A DNA stretch of 64,000 nt from Escherichia coli (lineage in GTDB: Bacteria; Pseudomonadota; Gammaproteobacteria; Enterobacterales; Enterobacteriaceae), in the NCBI RefSeq assembly GCF_003334765.1, contig NZ_QOWT01000008.1; one strand, given 5' to 3'. Shown in pieces: positions 17,160-38,105 of the stretch; position 1 is the first letter of the stretch; each line of letters starts with the position of its first letter. The notes beneath the pieces are model-generated. The model ran no database searches. It saw nothing but the letters and a program-made list of their open reading frames with translations, and was not told the DNA's origin. The position numbers were made by a program, and so were the translations under genes.

Positions 17160-17861
17160 CTGAACACACCGGCACAGCTCTCTTTGCCACTTTATCTTCC
17201 TGACGACGAAACCTTTGCAAGTTTCTGGCCGGGGGATAACTCCTCTTTACTGGCCGCGCTGCAAAACGTGCTGCGTCAGGAACATAGCGGTTACATCTAT
17301 CTCTGGGCACGCGAAGGCGCGGGGCGCAGCCATCTGCTGCACGCGGCTTGCGCGGAATTGTCGCAGCGTGGCGATGCGGTGGGCTATGTCCCGCTGGATA
17401 AACGCACCTGGTTTGTTCCGGAAGTGCTCGACGGTATGGAGCATTTGTCGCTGGTCTGTATCGACAACATTGAGTGTATTGCAGGCGATGAGTTGTGGGA
17501 GATGGCGATTTTCGATCTCTACAATCGAATTCTGGAATCGGGCAAAACACGGTTGTTGATCACCGGCGATCGTCCACCGCGGCAGTTGAATCTGGGATTA
17601 CCGGATCTCGCGTCGCGACTCGACTGGGGGCAGATCTACAAATTGCAGCCACTTTCTGATGAAGATAAGTTGCAGGCGCTACAGTTACGCGCGCGTTTGC
17701 GTGGTTTTGAACTGCCGGAAGATGTGGGGCGTTTCTTGCTGAAGCGGCTCGACAGAGAAATGCGCACGCTATTTATGACGTTGGATCAGTTGGATCGTGC
17801 GTCGATTACCGCGCAACGTAAGCTGACCATTCCGTTTGTGAAAGAAATTCTGAAGTTGTAG
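17160..17861 (+). CDS. hda: DnaA-inactivating AAA+ protein Hda
   Basis: ORF track 17115..17861 (GTG, 248 aa); a 233-aa form would start at CTG 17160 preceded by GAGG; I recall CUG initiation being reported for Hda; AAA+ Walker motifs present. Confidence 0.8.
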
Positions 17862-17872
17862 ATAAGGTGTTT

Positions 17873-17972
17873 ATTGTCGGATGCGGCGCGAACGCCTTAT
17901 CCGAACTACGCGAAGTTAATCCATAGTATTCGTAGGCCGGATAAGACGTGGCAAGCGTCGCATCCGGCAATG
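17873..17972. repeat. REP (repetitive extragenic palindrome) pair
   Basis: Two GCCGGATGCGGCG...CGCCTTATCCGG-type palindromic units between hda and yfgD. Confidence 0.75.
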
Positions 17973-17998
17973 TGCTTCAACTAGCGATGGAGCACATC

Positions 17999-18358
17999 TT
18001 AACCCACGATTTCCAGTACCTGCTCCGGTGGACGACCAATCCGCGCTTTGCCATTCGCGACCACAATCGGGCGCTCCATCAGCTTCGGATTATCCACCAT
18101 TGCCTGAATCAGCGCCTCTTCGCTAAGCGAACTGTCAGCCAGGTTCAGTTCTTTATAAAGATCCTCTTTCTGGCGCATCAATTCACGGGCGCTATTCATC
18201 CCCAGTATTTTCAGCAAATCGCGCAGCGTTGCCGCATCGGCGGGTGTCTCAAGGTAGAGCACCACTTCTGGCTCCACGCCGTTTTCTTTCAGCAGGTTCA
18301 GCGTTTCCCGGCTCTTTGAACAGCGTGGGTTATGGTAGATTTTTACCTGTTTGGTCAT
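17999..18358 (-). CDS. yfgD: ArsC/Spx-family thioredoxin-fold protein YfgD
   Basis: 119-aa ORF MTKQVKIYHNPRCSKSRETLNLL... with CxxS redox motif. Confidence 0.88.
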   Translation of the reverse strand: MTKQVKIYHNPRCSKSRETLNLLKENGVEPEVVLYLETPADAATLRDLLKILGMNSARELMRQKEDLYKELNLADSSLSEEALIQAMVDNPKLMERPIVVANGKARIGRPPEQVLEIVG

Positions 18359-18378
18359 TGTTCTTCCTTTAATGCGAA

Positions 18379-19842
18379 TTACATCTTGGTATAAGGCTTA
18401 AAGCGTTCCTGCAGCTGGCGCAACTGGTCGATGCGCGCATCGTAACGCGCTTGTTGCAGGCTGCCTAATTTCACCTGCGAACTGGCGCTACTCAACAGCG
18501 AAATGGCCTGATCGAGTCGTCCGGCGAGCGCATAACCTTCTGCTCGCGCAGCCAGCTCCTGATCGCGGTTATTTAGCGCGGCTTCCGCCTGTGCCAGCAA
18601 ATCCCAGCCGTTGCTGTCATCTTTATTATTAAAGGTGTAGCGATTCAGAATATTGGCCGCTTCTTGTGGTTGACCGCCTTGCAAATAAGCGTTCGCCAGG
18701 TTGAGCTGCAACACCGGATTGGTGCGTAAATCGCGGGCATTTTTCAGACGATTGATCGCCTCATTGGCTTTGTTTTGCCCAAGATCGATATCAGTAGCCA
18801 GATCGAGATACCATGCGTTGCCAGGTTCTGCCGCCAGTAACGGTTGCAGCGTTTTACGCGCCTCGTCGTATTTATTGGCTTCCATCGCCTGTAAAGCACG
18901 ACCATATTGTGCTGCTCGTTGCTGACGAACGTTTCCTTTCGCCCATTCATCCAGCAAATCACTGGTGAGCTGGTTACGTCCGGAATTATACATCCCCAGT
19001 GTGCGCGCTTTCGCCAGATAGAAATCTTCCGACGACTGCACCACCATCGGGCGCATCTGATTAGCACGGTTGCGGGCATCTGCCAGACGACTTTCCGGCA
19101 ACGGGTGAGTCAATAAAATTTCCGGCGGGCGCGAGGAGTAACGCGCCTGATCGAGTAATTTTTCGAGGAAGGTTGGCATCGCCTGCGGATCGAATCCCGA
19201 GCGTTGCAGCACCTGAATACCAATGCGGTCCGCTTCCTGTTCATTTTGCTGGGTGAAACTGATCATCCCCTGACGCGTTCCCGCCAGTGTACCGGTCAGC
19301 GCCGCCATCCCCGCCTGCGGACTGGCCATCGCCAGTAAAATAGAACCTAACGCGCCGACCCAGGTCAGCGGCGCGCTGCGCTGCTGATCTTCCATCGCTC
19401 GCGCCAGGTGACGTTGGGTGACGTGGGAGATTTCGTGCGCCATAACTGAAGCCAGTTGACTTTCGTTATCGGAATAACGGAACAGGGCAGAGTGCAGCAC
19501 CACGTTGCCGCCAAAGAAAGCAAAGGCGTTAATTTCGTCGTTGTTGATCAGAAAAAAATGAAACGGTGTCTTAACCGAATTGGCATGCGAAACCAGACGC
19601 ATCCCCAGCGAATTAATATATTGCGTTAACAGCGGGTCATTAATTAACGGCGCGCTGCCGCGTAGCTGGCGGACATAATAGTCGCCCATCTGCATTTCCT
19701 GACCAATGGAAAGCGTGCTTCCTGCGGAGGTTCCCATATCCGGCAAGGTGTCTGCGCTGTCGGCAAACGCCGGGGCTACCTGACCAATGGTCATAGCAGC
19801 AATGAGGGTTGCAACCAGGTTTTTTTTCAACTGCCTGAACAT
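18379..19842 (-). CDS. bepA: Periplasmic beta-barrel assembly-enhancing protease BepA (M48 peptidase plus TPR)
   Basis: 487-aa ORF with signal peptide and HEISH zinc motif, C-terminal TPR repeats. Confidence 0.92.
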
Positions 19843-19873
19843 AACCTCTATCCTGTATTTCTGGAGATAGTCA

Positions 19874-19902
19874 TTTGACCGATACTGTGAAATATCGTTC
19901 CC
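19874..19902 (-). promoter_or_regulatory. Candidate sigmaE promoter for bepA
   Basis: Minus strand reads GGAACG-N16-GTCAAA (consensus GGAACTT-N16-TCAAA) about 30 nt upstream of the bepA ATG. Confidence 0.55.
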
Positions 19903-20054
19903 ACCGCGCCGCCTTTGAGTGTAACGGCGAAGATTAGCCCACTCAAATGACTTTTCAGTTTCCTGAATCCGTCATAAAAAGCGAAGTCTTTTTTGTGACA
20001 TTTCGATACAATTGCGGATCGCAATCCCGCTCTTGAGGTTCAGGGAAGGTCTTT

Positions 20055-21116
20055 ATGCTCGAAATGTTGATGCAATGGTATCGCCGCCGTTTTAGCGACC
20101 CGGAAGCGATTGCCTTGCTGGTTATTTTAGTTGCCGGATTTGGCATTATCTTTTTCTTTAGTGGCCTGCTTGCTCCGTTGCTGGTGGCTATTGTGCTGGC
20201 CTATTTGCTGGAATGGCCAACCGTGCGTCTGCAATCTATTGGCTGCTCCCGCCGCTGGGCGACGTCGATTGTATTGGTGGTTTTCGTCGGTATATTGCTA
20301 CTGATGGCGTTCGTGGTACTGCCTATCGCCTGGCAACAGGGCATCTACTTAATCCGCGATATGCCGGGGATGCTCAATAAGCTTTCTGACTTTGCCGCCA
20401 CGTTGCCGCGCCGCTATCCGGCGTTAATGGACGCGGGCATTATTGATGCAATGGCCGAAAATATGCGCAGTCGGATGCTGACCATGGGCGATTCGGTGGT
20501 GAAAATTTCCCTCGCCTCGCTGGTCGGTTTGCTGACCATAGCCGTCTATCTGGTGCTGGTGCCATTGATGGTCTTCTTCCTGCTGAAAGACAAAGAGCAG
20601 ATGCTGAACGCCGTTCGCCGGGTGCTGCCGCGTAACCGTGGGCTGGCAGGACAGGTGTGGAAGGAGATGAATCAACAAATCACCAACTATATCCGCGGCA
20701 AAGTGCTGGAGATGATCGTGGTGGGGATCGCCACCTGGCTGGGGTTCTTGCTCTTCGGGCTGAACTATTCGCTGCTGCTGGCAGTGCTGGTCGGCTTCTC
20801 GGTTCTTATTCCGTACATTGGCGCATTTGTGGTGACCATTCCGGTGGTTGGCGTGGCGCTATTCCAGTTTGGCGCAGGTACTGAATTCTGGAGCTGCTTC
20901 GCGGTGTATCTGATTATTCAGGCGCTGGACGGCAACCTGTTAGTGCCGGTGTTGTTCTCCGAAGCGGTTAACCTGCATCCGCTGGTGATTATTTTATCGG
21001 TGGTGATCTTCGGTGGTTTGTGGGGATTCTGGGGCGTATTCTTCGCCATTCCGTTGGCGACGCTGATCAAAGCCGTGATTCATGCCTGGCCCGATGGGCA
21101 AATCGCGCAAGAATAA
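20055..21116 (+). CDS. perM: AI-2E/PerM family membrane transporter (YfgO)
   Basis: 353-aa polytopic membrane ORF MLEMLMQWYRRRFSDPEAIALLVIL.... Confidence 0.88.
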   Translation: MLEMLMQWYRRRFSDPEAIALLVILVAGFGIIFFFSGLLAPLLVAIVLAYLLEWPTVRLQSIGCSRRWATSIVLVVFVGILLLMAFVVLPIAWQQGIYLIRDMPGMLNKLSDFAATLPRRYPALMDAGIIDAMAENMRSRMLTMGDSVVKISLASLVGLLTIAVYLVLVPLMVFFLLKDKEQMLNAVRRVLPRNRGLAGQVWKEMNQQITNYIRGKVLEMIVVGIATWLGFLLFGLNYSLLLAVLVGFSVLIPYIGAFVVTIPVVGVALFQFGAGTEFWSCFAVYLIIQALDGNLLVPVLFSEAVNLHPLVIILSVVIFGGLWGFWGVFFAIPLATLIKAVIHAWPDGQIAQE

Positions 21117-36030: not shown

Positions 36031-36175
36031 ACTGGTTATTCCTTTAAGGGGTGAGTTGTTCTTAAGGAAAGCATAAAAAAAACATGCATACAACAATCAG
36101 AACGGTTCTGTCTGCTTGCTTTTAATGCCATACCAAACGTACCATTGAGACACTTGTTTGCACAGAGGATGGCCC

Positions 36176-37054
36176 ATGTTCACGGGAAGTATTGTCGCGA
36201 TTGTTACTCCGATGGATGAAAAAGGTAATGTCTGTCGGGCTAGCTTGAAAAAACTGATTGATTATCATGTCGCCAGCGGTACTTCGGCGATCGTTTCTGT
36301 TGGCACCACTGGCGAGTCCGCTACCTTAAATCATGACGAACATGCTGATGTGGTGATGATGACGCTGGATCTGGCTGATGGGCGCATTCCGGTAATTGCC
36401 GGGACCGGCGCTAACGCTACTGCGGAAGCCATTAGCCTGACGCAGCGCTTCAATGACAGTGGTATCGTCGGCTGCCTGACGGTAACCCCTTACTACAATC
36501 GTCCGTCGCAAGAAGGTTTGTATCAGCATTTCAAAGCCATCGCTGAGCATACTGACCTGCCGCAAATTCTGTATAATGTGCCGTCCCGTACTGGCTGCGA
36601 TCTGCTCCCGGAAACGGTGGGCCGTCTGGCGAAAGTAAAAAATATTATCGGAATCAAAGAGGCAACAGGGAACTTAACGCGTGTAAACCAGATCAAAGAG
36701 CTGGTTTCAGATGATTTTGTTCTGCTGAGCGGCGATGATGCGAGCGCGCTGGACTTCATGCAATTGGGCGGTCATGGGGTTATTTCCGTTACGGCTAACG
36801 TCGCAGCGCGTGATATGGCCCAGATGTGCAAACTGGCAGCAGAAGGGCATTTTGCCGAGGCACGCGTTATTAATCAGCGTCTGATGCCATTACACAACAA
36901 ACTATTTGTCGAACCCAATCCAATCCCGGTGAAATGGGCATGTAAGGAACTGGGTCTTGTGGCGACCGATACGCTGCGCCTGCCAATGACACCAATCACC
37001 GACAGTGGTCGTGAGACGGTCAGAGCGGCGCTTAAGCATGCCGGTTTGCTGTAA
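36176..37054 (+). CDS. dapA: 4-hydroxy-tetrahydrodipicolinate synthase
   Basis: ORF track 36158..37054; start reset to [18 protein letters not shown] (292 aa). Confidence 0.95.
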
Positions 37055-37070
37055 AGTTTAGGGAGATTTG

Positions 37071-38105
37071 ATGGCTTACTCTGTTCAAAAGTCGCGCCTG
37101 GCAAAGGTTGCGGGTGTTTCGCTTGTTTTATTACTCGCTGCCTGTAGTTCTGACTCACGCTATAAGCGTCAGGTCAGTGGTGATGAAGCCTACCTGGAAG
37201 CGGCACCGCTTGCGGAGCTTCATGCCCCGGCTGGAATGATTTTGCCGGTGACCTCCGGTGATTATGCAATCCCGGTGACCAACGGTAGTGGTGCTGTCGG
37301 TAAGGCGCTGGACATTCGTCCACCAGCCCAGCCGCTGGCACTGGTTTCTGGCGCGCGTACCCAGTTCACGGGCGATACCGCTTCATTGCTGGTGGAAAAT
37401 GGTCGTGGCAATACTCTGTGGCCGCAGGTGGTTAGCGTGCTGCAGGCGAAAAACTACACCATCACCCAACGTGATGATGCTGGTCAGACACTGACCACCG
37501 ATTGGGTACAATGGAACCGTCTGGACGAAGACGAGCAGTATCGTGGTCGTTATCAAATCTCTGTTAAGCCGCAGGGTTATCAGCAGGCGGTTACGGTTAA
37601 ACTGCTGAACCTGGAACAGGCGGGCAAACCGGTTGCAGACGCGGCTTCCATGCAGCGTTACAGCACGGAGATGATGAACGTTATTTCCGCCGGTCTGGAT
37701 AAATCTGCCACTGACGCCGCGAACGCTGCGCAAAATCGTGCCTCCACCACTATGGACGTACAAAGTGCAGCTGATGACACCGGTTTACCAATGCTGGTCG
37801 TACGCGGGCCGTTCAATGTGGTTTGGCAACGTCTGCCAGCGGCGCTGGAAAAAGTGGGCATGAAAGTGACCGACAGCACCCGTTCGCAGGGCAACATGGC
37901 CGTAACTTATAAGCCGCTGTCTGACAGCGACTGGCAGGAACTGGGCGCGAGCGATCCAGGCCTGGCATCCGGTGACTATAAACTGCAGGTTGGCGATTTA
38001 GATAACCGCAGCAGCCTACAGTTCATCGATCCGAAAGGTCATACTCTGACTCAGAGTCAGAACGACGCGCTGGTAGCTGTCTTCCAGGCTGCGTTTAGCA
38101 AGTAA
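37071..38105 (+). CDS. bamC: Outer-membrane protein assembly lipoprotein BamC (NlpB)
   Basis: ORF track 37068..38105; [27 protein letters not shown] with lipobox LAAC (344 aa). Confidence 0.93.

Follow-up and report, generated by a model that had tools for sequence, protein, structure and literature searches.

The bepA locus raises the question of whether the gene for a protease of outer-membrane quality control carries a stress promoter of its own, or whether a motif that resembles such a promoter stands in front of it by coincidence. A preliminary description of this DNA had placed a sigma-E-type promoter on the minus strand upstream of bepA and had taken it to fit a protease induced by envelope stress. 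The analysis supports that reading, and the site is very probably the promoter from which RpoE (sigma-E, sigma-24) drives the bepA-yfgD transcription unit. The case is built on the identity of BepA, the fit of the motif to consensus and spacing, its conservation footprint, its fixed distance to bepA and the sigma-E regulation described in published papers.

The bepA locus and its sigma-E-type motif

The window, by which is meant the whole 64-kb stretch of DNA that was analysed, resembles E. coli K-12 DNA; over the 501 bases surrounding the site it matches E. coli K-12 MG1655 at 100% identity, and this 501-base region was found in every complete E. coli genome searched (5426/5426). Identification of bepA is based on its open reading frame, on the RefSeq annotation and on the NCBIfam equivalog M48_BAM_BepA, which scored 742 bits (cut-off 570). 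The RefSeq annotation gives bepA and the divergent yfgO, encoding an AI-2E family transporter, as the genes that flank the site. A terminator-like site was sought in the 20-nt gap between bepA and yfgD and none was found, nor was an intrinsic terminator detected for the bepA-yfgD unit, and the literature describes the two genes as a bicistronic, sigma-E-dependent operon. An Rfam search of 17800..20200 gave no RNA-family match in the leader of bepA or in the intergenic region. The same search returned three sub-threshold matches to naRNA4 (28-31 bits, the gathering score being 59.5), lying on both strands at 17869..18003, between the convergent hda and yfgD; these matches are probably REP elements.

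The motif itself is as first described, GGAACG-N16-GTCAAA on the minus strand, and the full reading from 19902 to 19874 is g-GGAACG-ATATTTCACAGTATCG-GTCAAA. The interval originally assigned to it, 19874-19902, is exact except at its upstream edge, where 19902 takes in one surplus G, the motif proper being 19901..19874. In this register GGAACG occupies 19901..19896, the 16-nt gap 19895..19880 and GTCAAA 19879..19874, and the -10 ends 31 nt before the ATG at 19842, in agreement with the earlier estimate of about 30 nt. Aligned instead to the seven-base -35 consensus and the extended -10, the same bases divide as given in Table 1. The predicted discriminator is TGACT, of 5 nt, and the 5' UTR of bepA would be 26 nt long if counted from the predicted start. 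In a search of both strands of the window (128 kb), the strict pattern GGAAC-N18-TCAAA was matched once, against an expectation of 0.14 derived from 100 dinucleotide-preserving shuffles of the window, 13 of which held at least one match. By count, a single strict match in 128 kb is unremarkable; what goes beyond chance is that the sole match stands directly 5' of an envelope gene and has been conserved between genera. Loosening the spacer adds one match in the window, inside dapA, and a pattern scan of the bepA upstream region found no further sigma-E-like site.

Table 1. Coordinates in the window of the genes, promoter elements and candidate elements discussed in the text.
Feature	Position	Strand	Remarks
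bepA (yfgC) CDS	18379..19842	-	487 aa; M48 beta-barrel assembly-enhancing protease; ORF, NCBIfam equivalog, RefSeq annotation
yfgD (arsC-family) CDS	17999..18358	-	20 nt 3' of bepA; second in the transcription unit
Sigma-E -35 element GGAACGA	19895..19901	-	5/7 match to consensus GGAACTT; GA replaces TT at positions 6-7
16-nt spacer, GGAACGA to TCAAA	19879..19894	-	last three bases, CGG, form part of the extended -10 CGGTCAAA
Sigma-E -10 element CGGTCAAA	19874..19881	-	consensus T/C-GGTCAAAA, 8/9 match; core TCAAA 19878..19874
Predicted +1 (A)	19868	-	5 nt past TCAAA and 26 nt past the -35; placed by published spacing rules
Sigma-E promoter sequence with predicted +1 at 19868		-	GGAACGATATTTCACAGTATCGGTCAAA
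Shine-Dalgarno AGGA	19851..19854	-	within the conserved ACAGGA block; 8 nt 5' of ATG
Candidate sigma-70-type promoter TTGAGT-N17-TACACT	19918..19946	-	8/12 consensus positions
Sigma-E-type motif GGAACTT-N17-TCAAA	36669..36697	+	inside dapA (36158..37054); 371 nt 5' of bamC (37068..38105)

Conservation of the site and rival readings of it

The footprint was drawn from one scan of species-representative genomes, which yielded 80 Enterobacteriaceae bepA loci with protein identities of 84-99%, including those of Escherichia, Citrobacter, Enterobacter, Klebsiella, Raoultella, Kosakonia, Kluyvera, Buttiauxella, Cedecea, Leclercia, Lelliottia, Trabulsiella, Yokenella, Franconibacter and Siccibacter, among others. 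The 79 distinct upstream regions were aligned with MAFFT, and it should be borne in mind that the alignments and the conservation shuffles ignore kinship. In this alignment the GAAC core is 96-100% conserved, at 1.8-2.0 bits per column, and the columns of GGTCAAA show 82-97% conservation, with 1.2-1.8 bits, GTC within the -10 reaching 96-97%. The spacer columns between them (-51..-39) carry mostly 0.05-0.7 bits and are thus almost unconstrained. The predicted +1 is A in 92% of the orthologues, and the Shine-Dalgarno block ACAGGA (columns -14..-9) is 91-100% conserved. Across the individual loci, GAAC-N18-(G)TC[A/T]AA lies 56-61 nt 5' of the ATG in most of the 80, and the apparent misses mostly retain GAAC together with GTCGAA, GTCATA, GTCAAT or GTCTTA at unchanged spacing, such that the more permissive GAAC-N17-19-TC is present at -56..-61 in 77/80 loci. 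The bepA-yfgO intergenic region varies in length from 151 to 231 bp, and the distance from the motif to the bepA ATG has a standard deviation of 1.3 nt as against 6.8 nt for the distance to the yfgO start; the element therefore travels with bepA. The three exceptions are one locus (L052) with a degenerate -35 and two (L041 and L056) without the motif. The latter two, UBA7338 and 'Escherichia sp. ESNIH1', have intergenic regions of 151-152 bp with no recognisable sigma-E motif and no recognisable TACACT block of the upstream candidate discussed below, and it follows from these short, motif-free regions that the promoter has been lost or replaced in that lineage.

These patterns bear on two other ways of accounting for the motif. 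It could be a chance sequence with no role, in which case the induction of bepA by sigma-E would be indirect or would proceed through another site. The frequency of strict matches in shuffled windows speaks for such a view, as does the literature on sigma-E-induced genes that have no recognisable site and are thought to respond indirectly (imp-surA and djlA). However, in roughly 25 genera both elements are conserved around a free spacer and keep their distance to the bepA ATG, and the upstream region offers no alternative sigma-E-like site, which together make coincidence very improbable. The conserved blocks could also be read by some other factor, for example as a sigma-70 promoter or as a transcription-factor site that mimics the sigma-E consensus. 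TCAAAT (19878..19873) does match TATAAT at 4/6 positions, and a separate, conserved sigma-70-like promoter is found nearby. However, TCAAAT is without the key A at position 2, its final T (column -31) is conserved in only 48% of the sequences as against the near-invariance of GTC, bases without relevance to sigma-70, at the -35 it is GAAC and not a TTGACA-like hexamer that is conserved, and a generic sigma-70 scan was negative at the site. E. coli is known to possess two ECF sigma factors only, and the motif of FecI differs. A reader other than sigma-E is accordingly given very little likelihood, and a sigma-E promoter remains the preferred explanation of the conserved blocks.

Among E. coli genomes, 4853/5426 share an identical 38-nt core (19903..19866). 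Four divergent alleles, a small sample, carry SNPs 5' of the promoter, within the spacer (19889) or past the +1 (19864), and none in either hexamer; L001 and L002 were left out of this gapless SNP comparison because of indels. A separate observation concerns E. coli strain A24, from an armadillo (L081, NZ_CP028751.1 3648889-3649221), in which 186 bp are deleted between two CGATA direct repeats. The deletion, corresponding to about 19897-20079 of the window, takes out the start codon of yfgO and all of the intergenic DNA upstream, the sigma-70-like promoter included, together with the GGAAC of the -35, and leaves the -10 in place. A deletion of this type was seen in 1/5426 E. coli genomes, and it could be either a natural promoter knock-down or an assembly artefact.

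Published induction, a candidate upstream promoter and a model of control

The expectation that bepA is induced by envelope stress is upheld by papers that place yfgC/bepA under sigma-E. Overexpression of rpoE was reported to induce yfgC 2.4-fold and yfgD 1.5-fold, in a table that gives 56-fold for degP, and the same authors mark yfgC and yfgD as previously reported by Rhodius et al. (2006) (Bury-Moné et al., 2009). Further papers likewise assign yfgC/BepA to the sigma-E regulon. Sigma-E control of bepA has thus been in the literature since 2006, and the present finding is correct and ordinary. Other sources contributed nothing on this point: yfgC, bepA and bamC are mentioned neither in the text of the Salmonella sigma-E ChIP-seq study and the ChIP-exo supplements nor in the MicL paper, and a full-text literature search with the promoter's own letters and with promoter names gave irrelevant matches only. 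The finding contributes little that is new: sequence and comparative data confirm a direct connection of bepA to the envelope-stress response, the textbook context for BAM/LptD quality control. The detail that it does add is modest, and consists of the Enterobacteriaceae-wide conservation at a fixed distance from bepA, the lack of an UP element, a probable housekeeping promoter behind the sigma-E site and one natural E. coli isolate in which the -35 appears to be deleted.

The probable housekeeping promoter is a sigma-70-like candidate on the same strand, about 50 nt 5' of the sigma-E promoter (Table 1). In 75/81 sequences a TAcAcT-like hexamer falls at -77..-86, preceded two bases 5', at the extended -10 position, by a conserved G (68/70), and a T-rich -35-like hexamer lies 17 nt 5' of it; these columns are also conserved in the unbiased MAFFT alignment. 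A generic sigma-70 scan of 19700..20200 found no consensus promoter at its threshold, and did not report TTGAGT-N17-TACACT because only 8/12 consensus positions match. A literature search found no record of this predicted promoter. It could supply basal transcription of bepA, and bepA would then appear to be under dual control, with a conserved and apparently unrecorded sigma-70-type promoter in tandem with the sigma-E promoter. It is conceivable, if unlikely, that the upstream candidate makes most of the bepA mRNA and that the sigma-E promoter is minor and nearly vestigial. Such a division would accord with upstream elements that are conserved about as well as those of sigma-E, with an induction of bepA by sigma-E of 2.4-fold only and with a sigma-E promoter that has no UP element. 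However, GAAC and GTC are under strong purifying selection, which speaks for use of the sigma-E promoter, and a dominant upstream promoter would complement the sigma-E explanation without excluding it. A further point against a vestigial role is that rpoE is essential in E. coli and has basal activity there.

A model of sigma-E control at bepA can be constructed that takes the induction of the gene from the papers and joins it to the sequence, the consensus fit, the conservation and the linkage to bepA observed at the site. Within this model we infer where transcription starts, how strong the promoter is and how it shares the work with the upstream promoter. Upon accumulation of unfolded outer-membrane proteins, the anti-sigma factor RseA would be degraded and the sigma-E thereby freed would join core RNA polymerase. 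Region 4 of sigma-E would then read GGAACGA at 19901..19895 and region 2 would read (G)TCAAA at 19879..19874, with transcription starting from the predicted A or an adjacent base and proceeding through bepA and then yfgD. The outcome would be more BepA, a periplasmic M48 protease/chaperone that helps BAM to assemble LptD and other beta-barrel proteins or to degrade them. The promoter would be of moderate strength, adding a stress-induced increment to basal expression, as fits the lack of an UP element and the presence of the sigma-70-like candidate upstream.

A second motif inside dapA and comparison with known sigma-E systems

The match gained with the looser spacer lies within the coding sequence of dapA, upstream of bamC, and is spelled by the codons GGG-AAC-TTA...ATC-AAA, of which GGG-AAC-TTA encode the Gly-Asn-Leu of the active-site KEATGNL motif. 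Because dapA is at least 99% identical in 5408/5426 E. coli genomes, a polymorphism test of the internal site within the species has no power. Wider comparison was made with 120 metagenome loci that were fetched by a degenerate bamC pattern, and thus independently of the dapA-internal motif, and that provided 70 distinct dapA segments of 390 nt each, between which the median pairwise identity was 77%. The GGG, AAC, TTA and ATC codons are invariant in 70/70 of these segments, synonymous positions included. Among the 53 codons of conserved amino acids with at least fourfold degeneracy, only two are invariant, and these are the Gly and the Leu of the -35. An A/T-rich AAT-ATT pair about 25 nt 5' of the site is likewise invariant.

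In the literature, sigma-E induces bamC 3.1-fold and purC 2.4-fold, and Rhodius et al. (2006) have NlpB (BamC) induced "through an unknown mechanism." The literature search found no description of a dapA-internal promoter, with key older papers lying outside its reach. It is doubtful that the site is both functional and not already described in such sources as Dartigalongue (2001), Onufryk (2005), Mutalik (2009) or RegulonDB/EcoCyc. If it were both, it would supply a direct mechanism for the induction of bamC and purC by sigma-E, show how BamC, a BAM lipoprotein, comes under the stress response and offer a clean case of codon choice constrained by regulation. It could then matter more than the bepA promoter, and for this reason it is an item worth passing on.

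Returning to bepA, the site may be set beside the published rules for sigma-E promoters, which were drawn from 28 RACE-mapped promoters (Rhodius et al., 2006; PLoS Biol 4:e2). The rules comprise a -35 of GGAACTTTT, a -10 of T/C-GGTCAAAA, a spacer of 15-19 nt with 16 strongly preferred, a discriminator of 5/6 nt, a purine start and a distance from -35 to +1 of 25-28 nt, mostly 26/27. The region 5' of the -35 is A/T-rich, a frequent but not obligatory property that modulates strength and does not define membership. The bepA site has the -35, the -10 and the spacer of Enterobacteriaceae RpoE-dependent promoters, and its sequence permits a purine start at the widely conserved A, with discriminator and distance in the published range. 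It departs from the rules in the UP region, where the 30 nt at 19931..19902 are G+C-rich, with about 37% A+T by manual count, and the site is therefore without an UP element.

Measured against canonical E. coli sigma-E promoters as a class, the bepA site is alike in its -10 (8/9) and its 16-nt spacer, and with the predicted start it would also be alike in its 5-nt discriminator, its purine at +1 and its 26-nt distance from -35 to +1. However, its -35 ends in GA rather than TT, it has no UP element and its induction is modest beside that of degP. The weak distal half of the -35 and the missing UP element fit this modest induction. Tandem sigma-70 and sigma-E promoters occur at envelope genes within the sigma-E regulon, and bepA shares with these arrangements the same-strand order of the two, its own upstream promoter being a predicted one. 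The closest comparison is with the yfgC promoter published for E. coli K-12 (Rhodius et al., 2006), which concerns the same organism, the same gene, the same yfgC-yfgD operon and the same sigma factor, and whose consensus and spacing rules the bepA site obeys. No difference from the bepA site would be expected, with the coordinates presumed to be identical, and it is highly likely that the exact site described here is that published promoter.
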